Below are positions 38,019 to 51,646 of a stretch of DNA of 64,000 nucleotides, piece after piece. A program made the translations under genes and the position numbers. Positions within the stretch are counted from its first letter, which is position 1. Each line of letters opens with the position of its first letter. The notes under the pieces are model-generated. The model had not been told where the DNA came from. It searched no databases and was given only the letters and a program-made list of their open reading frames with translations. This DNA is from Thermoanaerobaculia bacterium (lineage in GTDB: Bacteria; Acidobacteriota; Thermoanaerobaculia; Gp7-AA8): positions 8,774 through 72,773 of the forward strand of contig DATKDP010000002.1 of the NCBI GenBank assembly GCA_035546335.1, given 5' to 3'.

Positions 38019-38702
38019 TCACTCGGGCTCCATGTCGCGGAGAGCGTCGAGATCGGTGATCACGAAACCGTCCTTGTCCGTGCGGACGATCTCGTCCCTC
38101 TGCCACCGGCTCATCAGCCTGATCGCGGTCTCCATCGTCGTTCCGATCAGGTCTGCGATCTCCTGGCGCGCGAGCGGCAAGGGGATGAAGATGCCATCGT
38201 CCTTCGCGACGCCGATCCGTTCGGCGAGCGTGAGGAAAAGACGGATGGCGCGACGTTCGACGGAGCCGGTCATGTCCGCGATGCGCTTGTTGACCGCCAT
38301 CAGACGCATGGTCAGCCCGGAGAGCAGATGACGCGTCATGTCCGGCCGCTTCTCCAGCAGTGCGAAGAACTCCCGCTCCGGGATCGAAAGAATCGTCGAA
38401 GGCTCCAGAGCGATCGCAGTCGCCGGGAACGGCCGGCGCTCGAATACCGCGACGGCTCCAACCGGCTCGCCGTCGCCGAGGATTTCGATGATCACGTCGC
38501 GCGCTCCGGCGGCCTTCACGATCTTGACACGGCCCGTGACCAGCAGATGGATGCGCTCCGCCGGATCGCCTTCACGGAAGACGACGTCGTTCTTCTCATA
38601 CGTGCCGAGGCGACAGAGTGGAGTGAGCGCATCGCGGTCCTCGTTTCGGAGAGAGGCGAGCAAGGGGATCGAGCCAAAAGGAAGCAGCGTCTGCACGGAC
38701 AC
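38019..38702 (-). CDS. Crp/Fnr-family transcriptional regulator (FNR/Dnr-like recognition helix)
   Basis: cNMP-binding-like barrel (VVFREGDPAERIHLLVTGRVKIV) and an HTH ...IADLIGTTMETAIRLMSRW that retains the E and R of the FNR E--SR motif. No in-frame ATG, so a GTG start at 38702 (or 38696) is proposed. The upstream part of the 322-aa ORF is translated repeat array. Confidence 0.8.
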   Translation of the reverse strand: MSVQTLLPFGSIPLLASLRNEDRDALTPLCRLGTYEKNDVVFREGDPAERIHLLVTGRVKIVKAAGARDVIIEILGDGEPVGAVAVFERRPFPATAIALEPSTILSIPEREFFALLEKRPDMTRHLLSGLTMRLMAVNKRIADMTGSVERRAIRLFLTLAERIGVAKDDGIFIPLPLARQEIADLIGTTMETAIRLMSRWQRDEIVRTDKDGFVITDLDALRDMEPE

Positions 38703-38753
38703 CGTGGAGCTTATACGAATGCGATGCCGCGAGACAGGGCCTCGCCCGGTGAG

Positions 38754-38830
38754 TCTCGAGTCCCGAGTTCCGAGCCTCGAGTCCCCGAGTTCGAGTCTCG
38801 AGCCTCGAGTCCCGAGCCTCGAGCCTCGAG
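38754..38830. repeat. Degenerate heptanucleotide tandem array (YYYCGAG)x11
   Basis: Units TCTCGAG TCCCGAG TTCCGAG CCTCGAG TCCCCGAG TTCGAG TCTCGAG CCTCGAG TCCCGAG CCTCGAG CCTCGAG. It contains six CTCGAG palindromes. Confidence 0.9.
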
Positions 38831-38889
38831 TCTCACCCGCAGGGCGTCGAGCCGGGCATGGTCGTACCCGAGCAGTTCGTGGAGCGTCT

Positions 38890-39675
38890 TCACGATCCGG
38901 ACGAGCTTCCGCAGGCGTGTGAGAAGGCGAATTCCTCCGGCGAGCCGCTGCGCTCCTCCAGCGATACGGCGCGGGTGAAGTAGACATTGTTCTCGATGTG
39001 GATGTGCTCGTGGGTGCGCAGCTCGAACTCCGTCAGCCTGCGATACAGCTCGCGGTAGCTGAAGCAGGCGCTCTCCGGAGGCGTGTAGTCATCGGTCACG
39101 ACCCGCAGGCGGCCGAGCAGCTCGCCGACGCGATCATGCTCGAGCATCATCATGCGGATGGGGTTCTTCACCGTGCCGAAGAAGGGAGTGGGAGGCGGTC
39201 CGCCACTCTCCGCCGCCTCCTCGAGCTGCGCGACGTACGGAAAGAGGACCTGTTCCTCCTTCAGCATGTGCGGCAGCATGTCCGTCGTCAGGTCGCGGAC
39301 CAGTTCGACGACCTCGGGCAGCTCCGGCCGCCGCTCGCCGTGAACGCCGAGGACTTTTGCTGCCAGAGGTGCGAACGTCGCCAGCTCCTCGCGCGTGTAA
39401 CGGTGATACGCATCGACGATGTGACCGGAAAGCGTTCGCAACGACTCGGATGACCAGTCCGTTGCGAGGGAATCGGGCATTGCTACAGCGCTATCGACTG
39501 CAGCCGCAAATTCCTCGACGGATTTCCCGACCGCCGTGCACGCCTCGGAAAGCGTCTGCTTGCCGCCGCAGCAGTAGTCGATCTTCCACGCCTCGAAGAC
39601 GCGGATCGCGATGGGCAGCTCGGCGGCGATCTCTCCGATCGTCTGCTCGTGAAGTGAACTTGTCGTGTTGTTCAT
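38890..39675 (-). CDS. ytfE: Iron-sulfur cluster repair di-iron protein (RIC/YtfE/ScdA family)
   Basis: AGGAGG RBS. N-terminal ScdA_N motif (IAIRVFEAWKIDYCCGGKQTL) and two hemerythrin-like His/Glu segments (HMLKEEQVLFPY, HEHIHIENN). Confidence 0.85.
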   Translation of the reverse strand: MNNTTSSLHEQTIGEIAAELPIAIRVFEAWKIDYCCGGKQTLSEACTAVGKSVEEFAAAVDSAVAMPDSLATDWSSESLRTLSGHIVDAYHRYTREELATFAPLAAKVLGVHGERRPELPEVVELVRDLTTDMLPHMLKEEQVLFPYVAQLEEAAESGGPPPTPFFGTVKNPIRMMMLEHDRVGELLGRLRVVTDDYTPPESACFSYRELYRRLTEFELRTHEHIHIENNVYFTRAVSLEERSGSPEEFAFSHACGSSSGS

Positions 39676-39724
39676 TGGCTCCTCCTGTTGTTCTCGATTA
39701 TCGGGAACTTCGGTGCGATCGGGT

Positions 39725-39738
39725 ATGACGGGCGTCAT
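39725..39738 (-). promoter_or_regulatory. FNR/Dnr-type palindrome ATGAC-N4-GTCAT upstream of the RIC gene
   Basis: Perfect 5-N4-5 inverted repeat. Its centre is 41.5 nt upstream of the transcription start implied by the GATAAT hexamer at 39702-39697 (minus strand). Confidence 0.5.
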
Positions 39739-39742
39739 GCCT

Positions 39743-39797
39743 CCGATCATCCCTTCGGGATGACGGGCCCGTGGGACTGCTGCCGGCCGCAGTCGCG
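39743..39797. repeat. Repeat family C, partial copy
   Basis: CCGATCATCCCTTCGGGATGACGGGCCCGTGGGACTGCTGCCGGCCGC... aligns with the 3' two-thirds of the copies at 40564-40655 and 46546-46639. Confidence 0.7.
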
Positions 39798-40029
39798 ATT
39801 TCGGCAGATCTAACCAGGTTCTACAGCGATGGCGGGGCCGCCATTGCGATCGTGCGAGGACGCCGACCCCCGGTTGCGCGGCGTTCCGAGGACTGCGCGC
39901 CTTTTTCGCGACTCCGCCCTGACGGGCGGGGCTGAGGTTGTGTCAGCCTCCTATTAGGTCGCGGATGGAATCGCGCATGCCGGAGCGCGGTGGTTTCCGA
40001 AGCGCGGCCCGAGTTATGATGATCGGACC

Positions 40030-40284
40030 ATGGTGCTCACGGTTCAGATCGAGGTGACCGAGCAGACGCTGGCCGCGCTGCGGCAGGATCCAGAGGAGTA
40101 TGCCGCGGAGTTGCGGCTGGCGGCTGCGGCGAAGCTCTACGAGCTGGGGCGCGTATCCCAGGAAGTCGCCGCGGAGATCGCCGGCTTGAACCGTGTTCAG
40201 TTTCTCGACGCACTGGCACAGTTCGAGGTTTCACCGTTTCAGGATACGCCGGAGTCCTTGAAGGACGAGCTGGGGCGTGCGTGA
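40030..40284 (+). CDS. UPF0175-family antitoxin-like protein
   Basis: 84 aa. ...AAKLYELGRVSQEVAAEIAGLNRVQFLDALAQFEVSPF... is typical of UPF0175 partners of DUF3368 PIN-like toxins. Confidence 0.75.
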   Translation: MVLTVQIEVTEQTLAALRQDPEEYAAELRLAAAAKLYELGRVSQEVAAEIAGLNRVQFLDALAQFEVSPFQDTPESLKDELGRA

Positions 40285-40597
40285 GCTCTGGGTCGTCGAC
40301 TCATCACCCCTGATTGCTCTCGGCAGGATCGGCCGGCTCGACCTTTTCTCATCCCTGGCCAGTGACGTCGTGGTGCCGAAGGCTGTGGCCGTCGAGCTCC
40401 GGCGGGCCGAAGATGAGGCAAGCCTCGCATTGTCCGCGTCATGGATTCGAATCGAGAGGACAGAGATCCACCACCTCGTCGCTGCGTGGGGCCTTGGGGC
40501 CGGAGAAACGGCGGTGCTTTCGTTCGCCAAACTCAATGAAGGCTACGTGGCGGTCGTCGGTGAGCGGTGGTGCGCTGCGCGCCTCAACACCGGCTGA
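40277..40597 (+). pseudogene. DUF3368 (PIN-like) toxin gene, 3'-truncated by a family C repeat
   Basis: Overlaps the antitoxin by 8 nt. The N-terminal WVVDSSPLIALGRIGRLDLF... is typical of the family. At 106 aa it is visibly shorter than I expect for the family, and the last ~11 codons plus the stop lie inside repeat C2. Confidence 0.6.
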
Positions 40598-40655
40598 ATC
40601 CGATCATCCCTTCGGGATGGAGTACGGGTGGGTCTGTGCCGGCCGCCTGCGCGCC
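40564..40655. repeat. Repeat family C, full but degenerate copy
   Basis: GCGGTGGTGCGCTGCGCGCCTCAACACCGGCTG..GATCATCCCTTCGGGATGG..GTGCCGGCCGCCTGCGCGCC aligns with 46546-46639 in the same orientation. It contains the stop codons of both flanking convergent genes. Confidence 0.8.
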
Positions 40656-41683
40656 CCTGCAAACGACCGGACTGCGGTCCACAGGAGTCCGCCGAAGGCG
40701 AGCGCCCACGCCGCGATGGCCACGAACACGACGACGCGCGGAATCACCATCAGGAACTCGAGGTGCGTCGCCTGAGCCAGCCGGTACGTGCAGACCGTGT
40801 ACATCCCGAGGGGAAAGACGGCCCCCCAATACAGCGGGTGATACGTCAGTGGAAAGCGTTTGTAAACATGGCGCCAGTAGCCGAGGATCAGGAGCATCGG
40901 GATCCACCAGGTGGCGGTCGCCCAGAAGAGGATCGTGAAGCCGAGGATGAAGGGCGCGAGTGTCGTCAGAAGCGGCGATGACTCCTGCGCGGCGAACAGC
41001 AGCGTTCCGGCGAGAGTCGAGATCGCCATCGCTCCCATGTTGATCCAATAAGGCGGCATCAGATCCGAGGGCGAGAACCGATAGAACGTGTATCGATAAA
41101 AAATGAGGGAAATCAGCCAGATGTACAACATTCCTCCGGCGAGCCAGAAGGTCAGACTGAGGAACAGCAGCAGCTGGGTTTGCGATCCGGACGACGGTGC
41201 GATCAGCGTTGCGAGGGTCGAGACTGATTCGGTTGCCACCACGGCCACGAGCCATCCGCCGTTGATCCCCTGATCGAGAGTCGGTTTCGACTCCTTCACC
41301 GTCAGGCCCGCGAACACCGCATAGACGAGCAGCAGCCAGAGCCCGAGGGTCGCGAACCAGAGTGCCGTGGCACTTCGATGGGCGTCGAAGAGGATGAAGA
41401 GCTGCGAGCCGAGGACGCTCGTCGCCGCGACCATGGTGAAGAAGCCGACGCCGCGCTGGTGATCGATGAGATCGCTCAGAACCTCGCGAGGGAACGAGGT
41501 CAGGCGTACGATCGTGAGGATCCAGAGGATCACGTACGCGGGGAGGTTCACGACGAGCAGCGCCAGGGCAATCGAATCCATGCCCATCAGCTCCGCGGCG
41601 ATCGAGACGATGCCGGTCGCCATGACCATCGCGAAGTAGGCGGGATGGAGCGTGCGAATGCCGTCCATCGGCGCTGTGGTCAT
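40604..41683 (-). CDS. TehA/SLAC1 (TDT) family anion channel/transporter
   Basis: About 10 TM helices. N-terminal LHPAYFAMVMATGIVSIAA matches the family signature. ATGA overlap with the upstream small gene. Start at ATG 41683, since the longer ORF to 41938 overlaps two genes. Confidence 0.8.
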   Translation of the reverse strand: MTTAPMDGIRTLHPAYFAMVMATGIVSIAAELMGMDSIALALLVVNLPAYVILWILTIVRLTSFPREVLSDLIDHQRGVGFFTMVAATSVLGSQLFILFDAHRSATALWFATLGLWLLLVYAVFAGLTVKESKPTLDQGINGGWLVAVVATESVSTLATLIAPSSGSQTQLLLFLSLTFWLAGGMLYIWLISLIFYRYTFYRFSPSDLMPPYWINMGAMAISTLAGTLLFAAQESSPLLTTLAPFILGFTILFWATATWWIPMLLILGYWRHVYKRFPLTYHPLYWGAVFPLGMYTVCTYRLAQATHLEFLMVIPRVVVFVAIAAWALAFGGLLWTAVRSFAGARRRPAQTHPYSIPKG

Positions 41684-41904
41684 CGGCGTTCCATCTGGTA
41701 GATGTACCAGAGCAGTCCGGCGTTGAGGAAAAGACAGACTGCGCTCGCGATTCCGGCAGGCAGAAGGACTGTCTCTTCGCCGCCCAGAAACGAGTTCATC
41801 GTCGCCGTCAGCAACCACAGCTGCAGCACGACGATCATGGCGACGATCGAGAGAATGCCGTTGACGATCGTCAGCTTCTGCCGGCGGGAAAAGGAGCGTT
41901 TCAC
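41680..41904 (-). CDS. Small 2-TM membrane protein
   Basis: 74 aa. GTGA overlap with the Rieske stop and ATGA overlap with the next gene. Two hydrophobic helices and no recognisable family. Confidence 0.55.
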
Positions 41905-42446
41905 CCGCGCACCTCCACGCCCGTCGCGTAAATGGCACCGTCGCGGATCTCCAGCTGAATTCGGGGAAGAGGGCGGCGTGGAGGCCCGGCCGTTGGTACG
42001 CCCGTCTCGAGATCGAACACGCCGTTGTGGCATGGACAATAGAGGCAGTTGTCCTTCGGGCGGGGTGTCACGGCGCAGCTCAGATGCGTGCACTTCTGTC
42101 CGTAGGCGACGAACCGCTCCTCGCCCGTTCGTACGAGGATGCAGTCGTCGTGAGCCGCGGGATAAGCGAACGTCAGCGCACTACCGATTGGAATCGTGCT
42201 CAGATCCGCGATTTTTCGAACGGGCGGCAAGCCGCGGCGTCGCCGACGCAGATTCTCGAGCACGATCCAGGCCTGACCGACCACGAAGGCGAAGCTGGTG
42301 AGCACGAGGAACTTGGTGAAGTCCCGTCGCGCCACGAGCTCGTCCTGAGGCCAGTCGATCGGGAAGTCGTTCCGCCACTGCGGTTGCTCGTGGTACGGGC
42401 GGCCATTCGGGGGAACCGAGAGCTGATCCGGAGGCGTGTCTGTCAT
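41901..42446 (-). CDS. Membrane-anchored Rieske [2Fe-2S] protein
   Basis: CTHLSC...CPCHNG cluster motifs. N-terminal ARRDFTKFL followed by a hydrophobic helix and then RRRRR. Confidence 0.88.
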
Positions 42447-42447
42447 C

Positions 42448-43083
42448 TCACATCTCGTCGAAAACGTTGTCGAGCATGTCTGCAGGGCTCTCGGGGTCCT
42501 CGTTCATCGCCGCGGTGACGTCGATGTGCTGGATCGCCGGGTCGCGGGGAACCATCATGTTCACTTTGGTGGTGATGACCTGGTTTCCGAACCGGAAGGT
42601 GTTCGTCGGCTTCGATTGCGGTCGCATGCGCTCGATCTCTTCACGCGTTCCGAAATGGAGCGCACCGCTGGGGCAGACCGACGCGCACATCGGTTTCAGA
42701 CCCACTGAAGTGCGGTCGTAGCACATGTCACATTTCATCATCAGCGAGAATTCGGTCTGCATCTTCGGTACGCCGAACGGGCAGGCCAGCACGCAGTTGT
42801 TGCAGGCGATGCAGCGAGGCTTGCGCGCCGTCTGCACCACGCCGTCGCCGGTCCGCTTGATCGCGTCGGCCGGGCAGACCTCCGCGCAGGTCGGCGAATC
42901 GCAGTGCATGCAGACGACGGGGACCGTCTGAACGGAGACCGGCCGCTCGACGAACTCGAGATGGATCATCGACACCCCCTTGTGCGTGTCGCATTCGCTG
43001 CATGCCGCAACGCACGACTGGCAGCCGATGCAGCGATTCGGATCGACGAAAAACTCCATGTTGGTCGACGGGGGCATGGTCAC
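42448..43083 (-). CDS. Four-cluster [4Fe-4S] ferredoxin subunit (DmsB/NarH-like)
   Basis: Four Cys groups ([41 protein letters not shown]...CASVCP). GTG start overlaps the upstream stop (GTGA). Confidence 0.9.
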
Positions 43084-45389
43084 GTTCTGCGCGGTGCGGC
43101 GCGGTGGGCCGCGTCGGTCGAGCCAGCGCGCTCGATGAAGGTGTCATCGGTTTTTTCGGTGATCGCCTCCTCGCCGGGAGGCTGTTGCGCCTTCTTCATG
43201 CGAACCGCGCATACCTTGTACTCGGGAATTTTGGAGATCGGATCCTGCGCGGCGATGGTCAGCTGGTTGGCTGATTTGCGACCCGGCCAGTGATACGGAA
43301 TGAAGATCGTGTCGGGCCGGATCGTCGTGACCACCTGCGCGCGGAGGGTGAGGTCGCCGCGTCGAGACTCCACGGTCGTCCAGTCGCCGTCCGCGATCCC
43401 GTACTTCGCGGCCAGCCTCGGGTGCATCTCGATGCGAGGCTCCGGGTACTGATCCACGAGCGGTCCGATGCGGCGCGTCTGCGTGCCGGAGAGGAACTGG
43501 CTGATGACTCTGCCCGTCGTGAGAATGATCGGGTATTCGTCATCGACGTCTTCTGCAGGCGGCCGGTATGCGGCGACATTGAACCTCGCCTTGCCGTCGG
43601 GGAAGTAGAACGGTCCGGCTCCTCGGGCGACCGGATTCCAGGAATCACTCTCGAACAGCCGCGGTGTTCCCGGATGATCCTCCGAGGGACAAGGCCAGAA
43701 GACGCCGTTGCGCGCTTCGATCTTCTCGTAGGTGATGCCGTAATAGTCGGCGACACCCCCCTTCGAGGCCACGCGCAGCTCGTCGAAGATCTCCCTCGGG
43801 CTGTCGAAGGTGAATCCGTGGGACCGGCCGAGTGCTCGAGCGATGTCCTGGATGATCCGCCAGTCCTGCCGTGCGTCTCCCGGAGGATCGACCGCCTTGT
43901 TGATCTTGATCACGCGCCCCTCCACCTGTGCGACGACGCCTTCGTCCTCTTCGTGGAGCGATCCGGGGAGCACGACGTCGGCGTGCTGCGCGGATTCGCT
44001 GAGAAAGAAATCGATGACCGTGAAGAACTCGAGCTTCTCCAGCGCCCGGGTGACGAAGGCGTTGTCCGGAAGCGAGACTTTCGGGTTGAAGCAGATGGAG
44101 AGCAGCCCTTTGATCTCGCCGGCGTCGATCTTGCGCATCATCTCGTAGCAGTCGACGCCTGCCTGTGGAATGTGTTCCGGCTCGATGCCCCACACGCTGG
44201 CGATGTATGCGCGGTGCTCGGGATTGCCGATGTCTCTCCAGCCCGGGAGCTGATCCGCTTTCTGTCCGTGCTCGCGTCCCCCCTGCCCGTTGCCCTGGCC
44301 GACGACCGTTCCGTATCCGCAAAAGGGGCGGCCGATGCGGCCCGACGCGAGGACGATGTTGATCGTGCCGAGACAGTTCTCGACCCCGTGCGTGTGATGC
44401 TCGATCCCACGCGCATGCATGAGAAAGCTGGTGCGCGCCTTTCCCCACAGCTCGGCGGCCTGGCGGATCGATTTCTCGGCGACCCCCGTGACCTCCGCCG
44501 TCCGCTTCGGCGTCCACTGCTTCACCTCGCTGGCGACCGCGTCGAACCCGGCCGTGTGCTTCTCGATGAAGTCGTGATCGAGCCAGTCGTTCTCGATCAT
44601 CAGGTGCAGAATGCCGTTGAAGAGCGCGACGTCGCGGCCGGGCTTGACGGGAAGAAAGACATCGGCTGTTCGTGCGATCGGCGTGATCCGCGGATCGACG
44701 ACGATGAGCTTGCCGCCGTTCTCTCTCGCCTGCCAGACGTAATTCGTGGTGATCGGCGAACACTCGGCGGTGTTCGAGCCGGCGATGAGCACCACTTCGG
44801 CCTCGAGAATGTCGTCCCACGGATTCGCGCTTCGATCGATGCCGAACGCTTTTTTGTTCGCCGCGCCGGCGCTGACCATGCAGAGGCGGCCGTTGTAGTC
44901 GATGTACTTCGTGCCGAGGCAGACACGCGCAAACTTCCCCATCAGGTACGTCTTCTCGGTTGTGAGACTGGCGCCGCTCAGCACGCCGAAAGCGTCCTTC
45001 CCCCAGGTCGACTGAATGCGATCAATCTCTGCGGCGACCCGGGTGATCGCCGCGTCGTAGGGGAGCGCCTCGAAGCCGCTCGCGGAATCGGGATTGCGCT
45101 GCAGAGCGGTCAGCAGCCGGTCGGGATGGGCTCCCTGCAGATAGCGCTTCACCCCCTTCGGGCAGAGCATGCCTTTGTTGAACGGAAAGTCGTAACGAGG
45201 CTCGAATCCGATGACGATGTTGTCCTTGACCTCGAGCCGGATTCCGCACTGCTGACCGCAGAAGCAGCAATGCGTGTCGACGAGCCTGTCCGGCTCGACG
45301 GCCGTATCGAGACTCGCCCCCTCCATCCGATTCAGGTGGGGGCCGTAGACGTCGATGAGAAGAGCCTCTTCTTTGGGAAGTGTCGCCAT
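43080..45389 (-). CDS. Molybdopterin (bis-MGD) oxidoreductase catalytic subunit, NarB/NasA-like, no Tat signal
   Basis: 769 aa from ATG 45389. N-terminal [10 protein letters not shown] FeS motif and a [24 protein letters not shown] segment characteristic of assimilatory-type nitrate reductases. No RR leader and no in-frame TGA. Confidence 0.9.
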
Positions 45390-45391
45390 CG

Positions 45392-46474
45392 TCAGGATGT
45401 CCTCGTCCTTCCACGCCACAGCTCGCCCTGCGCCAGCGCGAGTATTCTTCGCCGGCATGAAGGGCAGATATGTTGGTAGTGATCGGCTCCGGCGGACTCG
45501 ATCTCGTACCGATACCCGAGCTCGCGCTCGACGTCGATGAGGTCGTTGATCTGGAGCAGGGGAGCGAAGTCGCGGCCGCAACGCCGGCATGCCGCCATTC
45601 CCTCGCGAGCTCCAACGTCCTTGTAGAAGCTGACGCCGAGTTGTGCGGGCCGCTGGAAGATGTGAAAGAACTTTCCGAACGGGAGCCACAACAGTGTGAA
45701 GATGACGGTGACGGCATGCAGCAGGGCGAGGAAGTCGTATCCGTAGCCTTTCATCCAGGTATAGCTCGCCGTCAGAAGCAGGCCGCTCACGCTGATGGCG
45801 AACAGGAGAATCAGCGGCATGAAGTCTTCGCCGAATCGCTGCGTCGCCGCCGCGCCGTGCTCGCGCATTCTGCGGCGCATGGCGAGCATCACGCCTGCGA
45901 TCACCAGGAACGAGGACCAGACCAGTCCGTGAAAAATCAGGAACGCGGTGAGGGAGTGAATTCGGAACGAATTCGTGGCAAAGCCGAAGACGTACGTCCG
46001 GTAGCTCTCCAGATCGCCCGGAACCGTTTCGAAGTGAATCCATCCGAAGACGAGGGGAAAGGTGATCGCGAAAGCGAGAATGCAGCCCCACATGATGAGC
46101 GCGTGCGCCACTCCCCGCGTGCGATTCCGCGTGAAGATGAATCGGTTCAGGGCGAAATCGCTGATCACCCGACGGAACAAGTTTCCGATGTTGCGCGTCA
46201 GGTACCGCGGCGCGAAGAACACCTGCCAGCCTCGGATCCAGTACTTGCGGGTGGGAGGCCGCTGAAGCCACATCGCGTAGCGGTAGGTGATGGCAAACGT
46301 GGCGAACAGGGTTGCGAAGGTATACCCGACGAGCGCCGCATCGAAGTGCGCGAGGTTCCTCGACCCGAATACGATCAAGACCCCGAGGATCGCCGTGAAG
46401 AGAAGACCCCACGACAACGCTGTCCATCGTTCTCGCCCAACGCGACCGAAACTCAGCATCGTAGCGAACTTCAT
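45392..46474 (-). CDS. NarI/TcuB-like polytopic membrane protein (probable b-haem subunit) with a C-terminal CxxC...CxxC tail
   Basis: Six or more TM helices with conserved His, [13 protein letters not shown] near the last helix, and CRRCG...CPSCRR at the C-terminus. Start uncertain (TTG 46507, ATG 46474 or ATG 46459). Confidence 0.7.
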
Positions 46475-46497
46475 AGCAGAATCCGCAACCGGGCAAC

Positions 46498-46511
46498 ATG
46501 ATATCAATCAT
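46498..46511 (-). promoter_or_regulatory. FNR-type palindrome ATGAT-N4-ATCAT upstream of the molybdoenzyme operon
   Basis: Perfect 5-N4-5 inverted repeat containing the TGAT-N4-ATCA FNR core. A TATGAA hexamer (46475-46470, minus strand) is at the class II distance. Confidence 0.45.
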
Positions 46512-46545: not shown

Positions 46546-46639
46546 CCGGTGGTGGCGCTGCGCGCTCACCACCGGCTGGACTCCCATCATCCCTTCGGGA
46601 TGGCGGACCCGTGGAACTGTGCCGGCCGCCTTCGCGGCC
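46546..46639. repeat. Repeat family C, best-preserved copy (three hairpins)
   Basis: Three stem pairs: CCGGTGGTG...CACCACCGG, then CATCCC-TTC-GGGATG, then GGCCGC-CTTC-GCGGCC. Same orientation as 40564-40655. Confidence 0.85.
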
Positions 46640-47599: not shown

Positions 47600-47845
47600 G
47601 GACTCGTGATCTCAGTACACGCCTGATCAAGCAGGTCGCGACTCAAGCGCGCATGAGACGGCTGCCAATCCGGCAAATGCTGTGCGCGTCCCGCCACTTC
47701 CTCCATCCTCAGACGGGTATTCCAGGAAGGATGTGCGTCGATGGCAACCCGTACCACCTCGCGGCACTCCGCCATCCAAGCGGAGGTGTCTAAGACCACA
47801 TCCGCCCATGCGCGCGACGACGCTGACAACGCCGGCGAGCGAATC

Positions 47846-50800
47846 ATGTCACAACGCAGCGCAGCCGCTGTCCGTGTCGTGGGAATCGGTGCATCGGCGG
47901 GAGGTCTCGACGCATTCCTCGATCTCGTCGGCGCCATTCCGGCCGACACGGGACTGGCCTTCGTGCTGATCCAGCACCTCGATCCGCGCCACGACAGCAT
48001 GCTCGGCGAGATCCTCGCCGGGGCCGCGTCGATTCCCGTGCAGGAAGTGGCGGACGGGATGCGCATCGAGCGCGATCGGGTCTACGTGATTCCGCCCGAT
48101 ACGCAGATGACCATGGATGGCGATGTCCTGCGGCTGATCCCGCGAACGCCGAAGGCGCCGCATCGTCCGCTGGACACGTTCTTCTCCTCGTTGGCGAAGG
48201 ACCGGAAACGCTTCGCGATCGGCGTAGTACTCTCCGGCAACGACGCGGACGGAGCTCTCGGCCTGCAGGCGATTCGCGACGCCGGAGGAATTACCTTCGC
48301 TCAGAATCCGGAAAGTGCGAAGTTCGACGTGATGCCGCGGGCAGCAGCCGTCGCCGCGGACTTCGTGCTGCCGCCCGCCGGAATCGCCGAGCGGCTGGTG
48401 AGCATCGCCCGGCGCGGCGGCTCGGAAGAAAGCAAACAGTCGCGGCATCAGAATGCGGACGAGCTCGACCGCATTCTCGAACTGCTGCACGCGCGGCATC
48501 CGACCGACTTCAGCCATTTCAAACGAGCAAGCGTCGAGCGGCGCATCCTGAGGCGTGTTCTTCTGGGGGGCCACGAAAACGTCAGCGGGTACGCCGACGC
48601 TCTCGAGAAAGACGACGACGCAGTCGAGACGCTCTACCACGATCTTCTGATCGGCGTGACTTCGTTCTTCCGCGAGCCGGGGCGCTTCGAGGCACTGAAG
48701 AGGGTCGCCTTTCCCGCGATCCTCGAGAACCGCGGACCCGACGACAGCATCCGGATCTGGGTCGCGGGCTGCTCGACGGGCGAGGAGGTGTACTCGCTGG
48801 GCATCACGCTGCTGGAGTTTCTCGACGGCCGTGCCGATGCGCCGCGAATCGTCATCTACGGGACCGACATCAACGAGAAATCGCTGAAGAAGGCGCGGAC
48901 CGCGGTGTACTCGGAGCGTGCGGTGAGCGGCGTGTCGCAACGACGCCTGGCGGAGTTCTTCACGCCCGTTCCGGGGGGGTACAAGATCGCGACGGCTCTT
49001 CGCGAGCTGTGCGTCTTCGCCGCGCACGATCTGACACGAGATCCTCCCTACTCGCGGATCGATCTGGTGACCTGTTGCAACGTCCTGATCTACTTCGATC
49101 CGGAGCTGCAGAAGAGAGCGGTCGCGATGCTGCAGTACGCGATTGCCCAGGGGGGATTCCTGATGCTCGGAAGCTCGGAGGGTCTCCGCGGCACGACGAA
49201 TCAGCTGACCCCCGTTTCGGCCAAGCCGCTGATCTATCGCAAGCTCCAGGTGCCGGCGGCGCTGGCCCCCTTCGACGTTGAGCGCCCACCTCGGTCGAGC
49301 GTTACCGCAGCCGCTCCTCTCCAGCACCGCATCGCGGGCGGAGCTCACGTCGATCGAAACAACGAGGACGACGCCTTCCTCGCCTTCCATCTCGCTCCGT
49401 GCGGGGTGCTCGTGGACGGACAGATGGAGATCACGCGTATCCGTGGTGACGTGTCTCCTTTCATCGCGCTCGAACCGGGAGACGCGTCACTCGATCTGTT
49501 CAGCCTGGTGCGGCATCACGAGATGCTCGCGGTGCTGCGAGGCGCAGTCCGCCGTGCGTTCCGCGAGCAGATCACCGTGACCAGGGAGAACATTCTGGTG
49601 ATGGACGGCGACGCTCGCCGCACCGTCGGGTTCGATGTGATTCCGTACGGGACTCCTCCCCCGGGACACGAGCGTTGCTGGATCGTGTTCCGCAGCAGCC
49701 TGGTTTCGGCGAATCGCAAGGCCGGGCGGCCGGGCGTTCAGGCGGAGATCGACGGGCTTCGGCAGGCACTGGCCTCGGCCATCGATGATCGCGAGCTTCT
49801 CGCCGAGGAGGCTTCCGCCACGGCCGAGGAAGCACAGTCGAGCGATGAAGAGCTGCGCAGCACAAACGAAGAGCTGGAGACGGCGAAAGAGGAGCTCCAG
49901 TCGGCGAACGAAGAACTGAGCACGCTCAACGACGAGCTCCGGGCGCGCAACACGGCGCTGGTGAAGCTGAACGACGACATCGAGAATCTCCTGGGCGCCG
50001 TGGAGATCCCGATTCTCTTCGTCGGAACCGATCTGACCGTGCGCCGGTTCAACACCACCGCAGGGCTGCTGTTGAACCTGCGCGCCGGCGCGATCGGCCG
50101 GCCTCTCCACGAGGCGAAGTCGGTGCTCGACGTTTCCAATCTGGGGAAGCTCGTCGGAGCGGTCATCGAGACAGCCATGGCCGCGGACGTCGAGGTGCAG
50201 GATGCGATCGGCGACTGGCGGCTGCTGCGCATTCGCGCGTACCGCACAGCCGACGGAAGGATTGACGGTGCCATCGTGGCCGTCCTCGACATCAATGTTC
50301 TGAAGCGAAGCGTCCTGGTCGCTGAAGAAGCGGCGTGTGCCGCCGACATGCTCTCCCAGGCGAGCGTTCTGCTTGCGTCATCGCTCGACTACGAAACGAC
50401 GCTCGAGTCGCTCACACGCCTCTCCACGGCGGCGTTCGCCGACTGGTGCGCCGTGGATCTGGTCAACGAAGATGGCTCGATTCGCCACCTCACCGTCTCG
50501 CACGCCAACCCCGTGCTGCGCGACCTCGCGCTGCAGTTCCAGGAAGTCGCCTTCAGCGAGCCGGAGCGCGCGCCGGGCGCGCCGCAGGCGCTCCTGCAGC
50601 GCAAGTCGGTGCTGCTCACCGACATCGCCGACTCACATTTGTCCGGCGTGCAGCCTGAGGCGAAGATCATGCAGCTCATCGGCGCGCTCGGCGTACGCTC
50701 GCTCATCAGCGTGCCGCTGATCGTCCGCGACAAGGTGCTGGGGACGACGACATTCTCCTCATCACGCCGCCGGTACGACGAAGCCGACCTGCGTCTGGCC

Positions 50801-51646
50801 GAGGAATTGTCCCAACGCGCCGCCGTGGCGATCGATACGGCCATGCTCTTCGGCGAGGCCGAGAGCGCGAACCGGTACAAGGACGCATTCCTCGGGACCG
50901 TGGCTCACGAGCTGCGAACGCCGCTGACCTCGATCATCGGCTGGGTGCAGTTGTCGAAGGAGGCTCCGAATCTCTTCGGCGAAGCCTTCGTCCGGATCGA
51001 ACAAAGTGCGAGCCTGCTCCAGGTGTTCACCGAGGATCTGCTGGACGTGACGCGAATCCGTGAGCAGAAGTTGAGCATGGAGATGGCGGAGGTCGATTTT
51101 GCATCGGTCGTCAGGTCGGCCCTGGACATCACTGCTCCTGCCGCGCTCGGTAGCGCGATTCGAGTCCATTCGGATCTCGCCCTCGATCCTGCGCCGATGT
51201 GTGGCGACAGCGTGCGGTTGCTGCAGGTCGTGTGGAACCTTCTGGGGAATGCGATCAAATTCACGCCGCCCGAAGGAGAGATTGACGTCCTGCTGGACCG
51301 GACCGGAAACGATGCCCGGTTGTCGGTGCGCGATACGGGCGCCGGCATCAGCGCCGACTTCGCGCCGCATGTCTTCGAGTTGTACCAGCAGGCGGATGAG
51401 GCGACAGGTCACCAGCCGGGGCTGGGAATCGGCCTGGCGATCGTCAAGCAGATCGTGAAGCTCCACGGCGGAACGGTGCGCGTCGAGAGTGCCGGTCTCG
51501 GTCGCGGATCGACGTTCGTCGTCACGCTGCCGCTCTCCTCCACGGCGACCGAAAGCGTGAGTCCTTCCGGAGCCGGCCCCCGGTCGGGCAAGTCCCGCCT
51601 AGCCGGCAGGCGAGCTACGGCGCAGCCCGAATCGGGGCCTTCATGA
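47846..51646 (+). CDS. CheB methylesterase-CheR methyltransferase-PAS-GAF-histidine kinase fusion protein
   Basis: VVGIGASAGGLDAF (CheB), WVAGCSTGEEVYSL (CheR SAM site), the SDEELRSTNEELETAKEELQSANEEL coiled coil typical of these fusions, a GAF-like segment, the H-box AHELRTPLTSI and HATPase motifs. The ORF opens at 47741; ATG 47846 fits the domain start. Confidence 0.88.
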   Translation: MSQRSAAAVRVVGIGASAGGLDAFLDLVGAIPADTGLAFVLIQHLDPRHDSMLGEILAGAASIPVQEVADGMRIERDRVYVIPPDTQMTMDGDVLRLIPRTPKAPHRPLDTFFSSLAKDRKRFAIGVVLSGNDADGALGLQAIRDAGGITFAQNPESAKFDVMPRAAAVAADFVLPPAGIAERLVSIARRGGSEESKQSRHQNADELDRILELLHARHPTDFSHFKRASVERRILRRVLLGGHENVSGYADALEKDDDAVETLYHDLLIGVTSFFREPGRFEALKRVAFPAILENRGPDDSIRIWVAGCSTGEEVYSLGITLLEFLDGRADAPRIVIYGTDINEKSLKKARTAVYSERAVSGVSQRRLAEFFTPVPGGYKIATALRELCVFAAHDLTRDPPYSRIDLVTCCNVLIYFDPELQKRAVAMLQYAIAQGGFLMLGSSEGLRGTTNQLTPVSAKPLIYRKLQVPAALAPFDVERPPRSSVTAAAPLQHRIAGGAHVDRNNEDDAFLAFHLAPCGVLVDGQMEITRIRGDVSPFIALEPGDASLDLFSLVRHHEMLAVLRGAVRRAFREQITVTRENILVMDGDARRTVGFDVIPYGTPPPGHERCWIVFRSSLVSANRKAGRPGVQAEIDGLRQALASAIDDRELLAEEASATAEEAQSSDEELRSTNEELETAKEELQSANEELSTLNDELRARNTALVKLNDDIENLLGAVEIPILFVGTDLTVRRFNTTAGLLLNLRAGAIGRPLHEAKSVLDVSNLGKLVGAVIETAMAADVEVQDAIGDWRLLRIRAYRTADGRIDGAIVAVLDINVLKRSVLVAEEAACAADMLSQASVLLASSLDYETTLESLTRLSTAAFADWCAVDLVNEDGSIRHLTVSHANPVLRDLALQFQEVAFSEPERAPGAPQALLQRKSVLLTDIADSHLSGVQPEAKIMQLIGALGVRSLISVPLIVRDKVLGTTTFSSSRRRYDEADLRLAEELSQRAAVAIDTAMLFGEAESANRYKDAFLGTVAHELRTPLTSIIGWVQLSKEAPNLFGEAFVRIEQSASLLQVFTEDLLDVTRIREQKLSMEMAEVDFASVVRSALDITAPAALGSAIRVHSDLALDPAPMCGDSVRLLQVVWNLLGNAIKFTPPEGEIDVLLDRTGNDARLSVRDTGAGISADFAPHVFELYQQADEATGHQPGLGIGLAIVKQIVKLHGGTVRVESAGLGRGSTFVVTLPLSSTATESVSPSGAGPRSGKSRLAGRRATAQPESGPS

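Follow-up and report, generated by a model that had tools for sequence, protein, structure and literature searches.

A conserved operon that pairs a NasC-clade molybdoenzyme with a Rieske protein and may encode a membrane-bound nitrate reductase

Six consecutive minus-strand open reading frames (ORFs) in a Thermoanaerobaculia genome raise the question of why a molybdoenzyme that looks cytoplasmic should be encoded together with partners of respiratory type. The stretch of DNA that we analyzed (the window) covers 64,000 nt of contig DATKDP010000002.1 (assembly GCA_035546335.1, positions 8,774 to 72,773, forward strand), and the six genes encode a membrane subunit, a catalytic subunit of the MopB superfamily, an iron-sulfur (FeS) subunit, a Rieske protein, a DUF6755 protein, and a SLAC1/TehA-family anion channel. 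Judging from their sequences, we give about even odds (probability, roughly 0.5) that they specify a membrane-bound, probably (mena)quinol-dependent nitrate reductase, a quinol-linked complex with parts on both sides of the membrane. Nitrate reductase is known as a kind of enzyme; this architecture is apparently undescribed. What appears to be new is the combination of a MopB protein of the NasC clade, a DmsB-type FeS protein, a Rieske protein with a twin-arginine translocation (Tat) motif, a membrane subunit with six transmembrane (TM) helices, His residues, and a four-cysteine (Cys4) domain, DUF6755, and a SLAC1 or NarK transporter. Searches of full text readable without a subscription, using DUF6755, Rieske with nitrate reductase and NasC, and the taxon names, returned no description of the operon. 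Candidate literature on Caldithrix Nap with Rieske/cytochrome b, Bacillus azotoformans and B. bataviensis, MopB phylogenies, and Sec-Tat proved inapplicable.

The operon and its catalytic subunit

The ORF check of the window gave a single run from 40604 to 46507 or 46474, according to the start codon chosen for the membrane gene (Table 1). Adjacent genes overlap by 4 nt at GTGA (43080-43083 and 41901-41904) and ATGA (41680-41683) or are separated by gaps of 1 nt (42447) and 2 nt (45390-45391), and the six genes, translationally coupled, form one operon. These junctions had all been listed correctly in the original prediction for this DNA, and the motifs that it named are present in the MopB and FeS proteins, in the Rieske protein (RRDFTKFL, a helix, and RRRRR), and in the membrane protein (His residues and CxxC...CxxC). 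The neighbors that it named, RIC and a Crp/Fnr regulator, are next door and agree with their family models. The upstream end that it gave, 46511, had to be corrected, as the ATG at this position lies in the MopB reading frame, out of frame with the membrane gene.

Pfam and NCBIfam models recognize Molybdopterin, Molybdop_Fe4S4, and Molydop_binding domains in the catalytic subunit. In the NCBIfam ranking, NasC comes first (806 bits), followed by Fdh-alpha (586), haloarchaeal NasA (381), NapA (260 to 268), and narG (48); the cut-offs are 1100 bits for NasC, 1084 for narG, and about 900 for NapA. When aligned with reference enzymes, the N-terminal [4Fe-4S] cysteine motif and LCPKG match the corresponding motifs of NasC and NapA. 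In the active site, GRLC170MVSAG, Cys170 is followed by Met; NasC and NapA share this pair, and formate dehydrogenases have C/U followed by His instead. A further segment is shared only with NasC among the references aligned. A neighbor-joining tree (a distance method, with 200 bootstraps and reference sequences from annotated plasmids) placed all system members, including Deinococcus, in one clade (100% bootstrap), with Brevibacillus, which carries the same operon, as its sister (95%). Together these were nested inside the NasC clade (99%), which stood apart from FdhF and from a group of NapA and proteobacterial NasA (98%). Identity to NasC/NarB/NasA-type enzymes is 43 to 48%, and none of 83 MopB homologs had a Tat-like N-terminus. 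By these sequence criteria, the catalytic subunit is predicted to be a nitrate-reductase-type enzyme of the NasC clade, which bears out the earlier description of a Tat-less NarB/NasA-like enzyme; the clustering with formate dehydrogenases that would have spoken against that description was not seen.

Other identities were considered and rejected. The best-scoring solved chains were FdhF-type formate dehydrogenases and Desulfovibrio NapA, and the formate dehydrogenase identity to which the former point is ruled out by the active-site residues and the phylogeny. Membership in Nap is contradicted by the missing Tat-like N-terminus and by NapA scores far below their cut-off, and no CxxCH-containing ORF lies in or beside the operon within the window. 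A NarG-type subunit is likewise contradicted by the narG score (48 versus 1084 bits), and the operon has no NarJ-like gene.

The same gene order was recovered in many other bacteria. A scan of genomes, one per species, yielded 580 confirmed candidate stretches, of which the best 80 were taken, and another 80 loci came from metagenomes scanned with the membrane subunit as seed, for ~160 in all (161 counted for neighboring genes). All of the best 80 stretches that reach far enough share the order membrane subunit, MopB, FeS, Rieske, DUF6755. This five-gene core occurs in the ~160 loci and in at least eight phyla, its hosts being Acidobacteriota, Chloroflexota, Planctomycetota, Gemmatimonadota, Armatimonadota, Bacteroidota-related bacteria, Binatia, Deinococcota, and Bacillota. 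Recurrence in ~160 independent loci puts the gene order far beyond chance, so the proposal of conserved synteny holds. Among the best 80, acidobacterial hosts were Thermoanaerobaculia, Blastocatellia, Vicinamibacterales, and Bryobacterales; those in Chloroflexota were Anaerolineae, Caldilineaceae, Ardenticatenaceae, and a cultured Herpetosiphon; and the remainder were several planctomycete orders, Longimicrobiales, Gemmatimonadaceae, Armatimonadota, Kapaibacterium, and Binatia. Divergent versions are carried by Deinococcus plasmids (MopB identity, 55 to 57%) and a Brevibacillus laterosporus replicon (47%), and the metagenome scan brought in a Bacillota-like clade and a large clade from soil that has this core too. 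Cultured carriers include B. laterosporus, Herpetosiphon sp. NSE202, and several Deinococcus strains.

Close homologs of the catalytic subunit, at 72 to 88% identity, number in the thousands. The tree within the clade is star-like, and this identity is kept across otherwise very distant phyla, which suggests that the protein is strongly constrained and has often been transferred horizontally. One locus (L166:895-5499) carries a circularly permuted operon, with the order FeS, Rieske, DUF6755, NarK, membrane subunit, MopB, so that the gene set is kept together even when its order changes.

Partner subunits, transporter slot, and gene neighborhood

The FeS protein is of the Fer4_11 type by Pfam/NCBIfam, with 16 conserved cysteines that make up four clusters, and none of 81 FeS homologs had a Tat-like N-terminus. 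The Rieske protein, identified by its Rieske domain, consists of a conserved tail of 40 aa at the N-terminus, a TM anchor preceded by a twin-arginine motif, and the C-terminal Rieske domain. The motif RR(D/E)F.(K/R)F precedes a hydrophobic helix in 74 of 76 homologs. Textbook Tat signals are seen in Deinococcus (a lysine-rich N-terminus, SRREFTRF, and a Gly/Ala/Ser/Thr-rich h-region) and in Brevibacillus, the N-terminus of which reads LDRRGFMKTMAGAVGVFAVASLP. The cluster boxes CTHLxC...CPCH are invariant, and both extra disulfide cysteines of the bc1/AioB type are 100% conserved. The Tat anchor, CxHxGC...CxCH boxes, and disulfide cysteines are all features of Rieske/cytochrome b-type proteins. 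The closest solved proteins by sequence are the Rieske protein of the Thermus bc complex (E = 2.5e-14), QcrA, AioB, and b6f Rieske proteins, and the best fold match of the AlphaFold2 (AF2) model (predicted local distance difference test [pLDDT], 84) is AioB (top hit, E = 5.6e-9; target-normalized TM-score over the AioB hits, 0.72 to 0.76). Since the Tat motif, the disulfide cysteines, and the respiratory-type fold all suggest an outside location for the Rieske domain, it is most probably Tat-translocated to the periplasmic face, with the N-terminal tail left in the cytoplasm. The original prediction had the whole assembly facing the cytoplasm, and for the Rieske protein this part of it is not supported.

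Gene fusions bear on the same proteins. P0298 (393 aa), a natural fusion protein from the search for Rieske representatives, begins with a 6-TM domain that is akin to the membrane subunit but lacks its His ligands and Cys4 tail; an RR helix and a Rieske domain follow. Fusions of FeS with the membrane subunit, of FeS with Rieske, or of MopB with Rieske were not found in ~160 loci and 150 Rieske representatives; P0383, a candidate FeS-Rieske fusion, proved to be a frameshifted ORF.

For the membrane subunit, no credible Pfam family was found (7tm_1 was at chance level, with 18 bits versus 30.5). There were no hits to PF02665, PF00033, or PF00032, and no PDB sequence match. Weak matches were obtained to the C-terminal membrane domains of TcuB/QmoC (E ~ 1e-5, with 7e-11 to QmoC for the Deinococcus ortholog). 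The His residues lie in TM3, TM4, and TM6; H124, H253, and H271 are present in all clades, H182 in all clades but Brevibacillus, and H147 in the main clade only. H253 and H271 are 18 residues apart, a spacing that we take to resemble that of the two heme-ligand His residues in TM5 of NarI, and a di-heme b function is plausible from the sequence. The cysteines of the C-terminal CxxC...CxxC (C296, C299, C337, and C340) are 99% conserved, and H332 is also conserved. In the earlier label of this protein as NarI/TcuB-like, the multiple His residues and CxxC...CxxC stand; for kinship with NarI or TcuB, the evidence consists of the weak matches above.

The orientation of the membrane subunit can be read from fusions with the transporter. 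A complete NarK is fused in frame to its N-terminus in nine Vicinamibacterales genomes, each confirmed by domain coordinates, and in one metagenome contig (Table 1). Both termini of NarK are cytoplasmic, as seen in the NarK/NarU structures, so the N-terminus of the membrane subunit should be cytoplasmic as well, and with six helices the CxxC...CxxC domain would also be cytoplasmic. This placement agrees with the AF2 model (pLDDT, 78.5) and with the charge pattern. A beta-sheet loop (residues 146-171) is predicted on the periplasmic side. The more than 7,500 homologs of the membrane subunit are labeled "hypothetical protein" or, wrongly, "MFS transporter" (major facilitator superfamily). The latter name is given to the Deinococcus wulumuqiensis pDrdI protein (L084:5889-7001) and to many NCBI proteins from metagenome-assembled genomes, which have no MFS domain, and the label probably spread from NarK-fused versions. 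The small subunit matches DUF6755 (PF20540) over its full length (103 bits versus a cut-off of 27; E = 8e-30); it has two TM helices, lacks cofactor ligands, and is kept in the operon across phyla.

The last gene matches SLAC1 (PF03595) with 168 bits (cut-off, 27.9; E = 3e-49) over profile positions 2 to 329 of 331, and the protein had no PDB sequence match at E <= 1e-3. In related loci, the slot that follows DUF6755 is taken by one of two transporters, a SLAC1-family channel or an MFS protein with NarK as its best-matching family. Among the 161 loci, 85 had enough flanking sequence to count as complete operons; of these, 48 have NarK, 32 have SLAC1, and 5 have neither. The transporter is an integral, interchangeable part of the operon, and the original prediction was right to count the anion channel as part of the unit. 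The interchange of SLAC1 and NarK favors nitrate/nitrite and a cytoplasmic active site, and the SLAC1 channel probably carries nitrate in and nitrite out. On a Hymenobacter volaticus plasmid (L096:5840-6896), three frameshifted SLAC1-family fragments lie just downstream of an unrelated "nitrate reductase" (34% identity), a hint of a wider association between this family and nitrate reductases.

Neighboring genes among the 161 loci included those for RIC (38 loci), Fnr/Crp regulators (18), NnrS (13), hemerythrin (9), and NrfHA (6). The Brevibacillus operon adjoins narK and a Bacillus-type fnr with C-terminal cysteines; narK-fnr is the context of narGHJI in B. subtilis. NirB was not found near the first set of related loci (the genome loci and three found through homologs). 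The nearest NasC genes outside the system (in Skermanella, Mycobacterium, Paenibacillus, and D. grandis) all lie beside nirB, nirD, narK, or a glutamine synthetase (GS) gene. In its linkage the operon does not match an assimilatory system: NirB is missing near that first set, and the partners are membrane-bound or of respiratory type, as had been claimed, in place of an NAD(P)H, ferredoxin, or flavodoxin supply. The sequence evidence supports nitrate as the substrate and a cytoplasmic active site, and the gene context tips the balance modestly toward a dissimilatory or redox-linked role over classical assimilation. Genes of the FmdE family occur near the operon in Deinococcus and several Anaerolineae (L084:14793-15410, L069:5508-6122, L080:6472-7134, and L082:5508-6092), and genes for molybdenum cofactor biosynthesis adjoin it in planctomycete loci (MoaA by Pfam; MoeA- and MobA-like proteins by sequence inspection only). 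Both may be maturation factors.

Comparison with known systems brings out how the parts are combined. NarGHI with NarK is similar in having a four-cluster FeS subunit, narK, and an Fnr-type context, and probably in being membrane-bound with a cytoplasmic active site; the anchor here may likewise be of b type and belong to the NarI-like superfamily. However, NarG has an Asp ligand and ~1250 aa, whereas the enzyme here is of NasC type, with a Cys ligand, 769 aa, and no NarJ, and its anchor, built of 6 TM helices with a Cys4 tail, is joined by a Tat-type Rieske protein and DUF6755. The Nas systems (NasC-NasG-NasB and NarB-ferredoxin) share the catalytic clade, the active-site motifs, the lack of a Tat signal, a NarK-type transporter, and, in some, a Rieske-fold protein. 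They differ in that the operon here has no linkage to nirBD, nirA, or GS and no NAD(P)H or ferredoxin module, its partners are membrane proteins, and its Rieske protein is respiratory, Tat-targeted, and disulfide-bearing rather than NirD/NasG-like. Archaeal pNar (NarGH, the Rieske protein NarB, and cytochrome b NarC) is likewise a nitrate reductase operon with a Rieske protein and a b-type membrane protein, but it is a Tat-exported NarG-clade enzyme of the outer face that needs no transporter, whereas here the enzyme is of the NasC clade and Tat-less, with a transporter in 80 of 85 operons. As in the Rieske/cytochrome b complexes (bc1 and b6f), a Tat-inserted, disulfide-bearing Rieske protein stands beside a multi-His membrane protein, and quinol oxidation would be at the outer face. 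Unlike in those complexes, the membrane subunit is not a cytochrome b, there is no cytochrome c1 or f, and a cytoplasmic molybdoenzyme module stands where the Qi site would be. AioAB and IdrAB also pair a Tat-less molybdoenzyme with a Tat-bearing Rieske protein, AioB being the closest fold. However, AioA lacks the Cys ligand and carries a 3Fe-4S cluster, both Aio and Idr are periplasmic, and neither has a four-cluster FeS subunit, membrane subunit, or transporter.

Another, seemingly two-sided molybdoenzyme system was seen on soil metagenome contig Ga0068855_100001800 (L172:1-7993). Its genes encode, in order, SLAC1; a MopB protein of 842 aa that resembles type-II DMSO reductases and shows no obvious Tat signal; a 612-aa protein in which a four-cluster FeS domain, a TM helix, a cytochrome c domain, and a membrane domain similar to QmoC/TcuB are fused; a Tat-Rieske protein; a cytochrome b6-like protein; and, as a separate protein, a homolog of the membrane subunit.

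Proposed electron path and rival readings

In a quinol-linked, two-sided nitrate reductase, nitrate would enter and nitrite would leave through SLAC1 (or NarK), and MopB would reduce nitrate in the cytoplasm. Electrons would flow from the NarI/QmoC-type, 6-TM membrane subunit to the FeS protein and on to MopB, by way of two b hemes, one held by H124/H271 on the cytoplasmic side and the other by H182/H253 on the periplasmic side, with the cytoplasmic Cys4 domain as a docking or relay site. Tat would insert the Rieske protein with its cluster domain in the periplasm and its N-terminal tail in the cytoplasm, and the Rieske domain, the membrane subunit, and DUF6755 would form a quinol-oxidizing site at the outer face, as in Rieske/cytochrome b complexes. 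The nitrite produced might feed NrfA-type ammonification or be exported, and RIC and NnrS might guard against the NO formed. The original prediction held that it would fail if the FeS and Rieske modules lay on opposite sides of the membrane with no electron path between them; opposite sides are indeed probable, but the conserved His residues of the membrane subunit offer a path.

Several points weigh against this reading. The catalytic subunit scores 806 bits against the NasC equivalog model NF047855, below the cut-off of 1100, and a Foldseek search with the membrane subunit gave no significant match, the best being mycobacterial EtfD (probability, 0.82; TMq, 0.35). A periplasmic Rieske domain would have no obvious partner, as the operon encodes no cytochrome c or cupredoxin, and in all characterized systems known to us that combine a molybdoenzyme with a Rieske protein (Aio, Idr, and archaeal pNar) the two are on the same side. 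We infer the quinol donor, heme binding, and the sidedness of every subunit from sequence. Finally, the many aerobic host lineages and the derivation of the clade from NasC may leave room for an assimilatory role.

That role would belong to the same complex, with quinol-driven nitrate assimilation in aerobic soil bacteria and NirA/NirBD encoded elsewhere in the genome. We regard it as possible, if somewhat unlikely. The catalytic subunit does have its origin in the assimilatory NasC clade, many of the hosts, such as Blastocatellia, Vicinamibacteria, Deinococcus, and planctomycetes, live mainly as aerobic heterotrophs, and JGI labels the gene as assimilatory; nevertheless, nirB is missing near the first set of related loci while the nearest true NasC genes all have it, and the recurrent neighbors are RIC, NnrS, Fnr/Crp, hemerythrin, and NrfHA, with narK-fnr in Brevibacillus. 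It is also conceivable, though we hold it only tentatively and think it rather unlikely, that electrons are split as in bc1, the Rieske electron going to a soluble periplasmic carrier encoded elsewhere and the b-heme electron to cytoplasmic nitrate. In that case, the Rieske domain and the membrane subunit would form a Qo-type site, and nitrate reduction through Cys4, FeS, and the NasC-type subunit would replace the Qi site. If true, such splitting would be a new form of energy conservation that couples cytoplasmic nitrate reduction to periplasmic electron delivery.

The Rieske protein is also central to two readings that put all redox subunits on one side. MopB and FeS might be exported bound to it, like AioA with AioB, to yield a nitrate reductase that faces the periplasm and has a Rieske/b module of the Q-cycle type, resembling archaeal pNar but with a NasC-type catalytic subunit. 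The Tat motif is found on the Rieske protein only, AioB, its nearest match by fold, docks directly on a molybdoenzyme, and the MopB-Rieske operons already established (Aio, Idr, and pNar) are same-sided. We nonetheless find export of this kind doubtful, since the transporter, present in 80 of 85 operons and sometimes fused, would have no role if nitrate were reduced outside. Two features of the membrane subunit, its strictly conserved cytoplasmic Cys4 domain and its large loops on the cytoplasmic side, also speak for an inner location, as do the linkage of the operon with RIC, a cytoplasmic protein, and the position of the clade within NasC, itself cytoplasmic. Conversely, the chain might be wholly cytoplasmic, with NasC supplied by the Rieske protein as a membrane-tethered analog of NasG/NirD. 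The C-flank of the window Rieske protein, more basic than the N-flank (median net charge, +4 versus 0), would be inside by the positive-inside rule, although basic residues following a Tat-dependent helix are a known feature. There is also a precedent in Paracoccus NasC, cited in PMC3475470 as using a Rieske-type partner, NasG. Against such a chain, the basic cluster is absent or acidic in Anaerolineae and absent in Deinococcus and Brevibacillus, while the RR motif is invariant; the Brevibacillus protein begins with a canonical Tat signal; conservation of the disulfide cysteines is 100%; in both sequence and fold the protein resembles respiratory Rieske proteins and AioB rather than NirD; and the P0298 fusion has its RR helix after a 6-TM domain. 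An all-cytoplasmic arrangement thus seems very doubtful.

A different substrate (chlorate, selenate, tellurite, or iodate) or a reverse nitrite oxidase that sends electrons to a periplasmic Rieske protein is the least credible reading. The SLAC1/TehA family was named for tellurite resistance, and a linear chain from MopB through FeS and the b hemes to a periplasmic Rieske domain would suit outward flow. However, NasC has identical active-site motifs, NarK replaces SLAC1 in the same slot, the neighbors include NrfHA, RIC, and NnrS, and the hosts are not, to our knowledge, nitrite oxidizers.

Surroundings of the operon and biological meaning

RIC (repair of iron-sulfur clusters) and the Crp/Fnr-family regulator are encoded immediately downstream of the six-gene operon on the same strand; the true start of RIC is probably downstream of 39750. 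A ~60-nt repeat with a palindrome occurs in three copies of the same orientation (Table 1), which separate RIC, a toxin-antitoxin-like pair, and the operon; the middle copy overlaps the last SLAC1 codons, and the third lies 70 to 130 nt upstream of the operon. Four matches to the repeat core were counted, where chance would give 0.09. Related loci lack the repeat, and its candidacy as a conserved regulatory site was dropped on that ground; it could be a repetitive extragenic palindromic (REP)-like element, a terminator, or a recombination scar. Between the 1301-aa ORF upstream and the operon lie genes for a small membrane protein and a helix-turn-helix regulator. No further nitrogen-cycle genes were seen within the window. 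An FNR-box scan of the window gave a single site (657-670), far from the operon and at chance level, and scans for sigma-70 promoters and terminators gave nothing useful.

Table 1. Coordinates of the operon genes and of other features discussed in the text (positions in the window unless a locus is named)
Feature	Coordinates	Strand	Description
Membrane subunit	45392-46507 (TTG) or 45392-46474 (ATG, "MKFATML"; more likely)	-	6 TM helices
MopB catalytic subunit, NasC clade	43080-45389	-	769 aa; Mo-bisPGD; without Tat signal
FeS subunit, four-[4Fe-4S], DmsB/FdnH/HycB type	42448-43083	-	211 aa; without signal sequence
Rieske [2Fe-2S] protein, respiratory type	41901-42446	-	181 aa
DUF6755	41680-41904	-	74 aa; two TM helices
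SLAC1/TehA-family anion channel	40604-41683	-	359 aa
RIC (YtfE/ScdA-type di-iron protein)	38890-39750	-	TIGR03652, 216.8 (cut-off, 204.7)
Crp/Fnr-family regulator	38019-38987	-	Listed ORF over-long; start uncertain
~60-nt repeat with palindrome (T)CATCCCTTCGGGATG(A)	39735-39800, 40592-40656, 46575-46639	+	Three same-orientation copies
UPF0175 antitoxin-like gene	40030-40284	+	First of overlapping pair between RIC and operon
106-aa protein	40277-40597	+	Second of pair; no Pfam hit; candidate, might be PIN-like toxin
1301-aa protein	47741-51646	+	CheB methylesterase, CheR methyltransferase, PAS, GAF, histidine kinase; upstream of operon
NarK-membrane subunit fusions	L058, L063, L070, L071, L073, L074, L077, L081, L083 (~5.6-8.0 kb each); L170:2685-4943		720-790 aa

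Thousands of such catalytic subunits are present in soil, sediment, and freshwater metagenomes, and automatic annotation calls them "assimilatory nitrate reductase" (JGI) or "molybdopterin oxidoreductase family protein." If the enzyme is membrane-bound and energy-linked, a large share of the potential for nitrate reduction is misclassified in inventories that rely on nasA, narG, and napA, the hosts including Acidobacteriota, Chloroflexota, Planctomycetota, and Gemmatimonadota. The system could explain the source of nitrite in NrfA carriers without Nar and Nap. It would assign a function to DUF6755, to the membrane-protein family with its thousands of homologs, and to bacterial SLAC1/TehA proteins as nitrate/nitrite channels, and it poses the bioenergetic question of what task a periplasmic Rieske protein has in a complex with a cytoplasmic active site. 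The cultured carriers make the system experimentally accessible.

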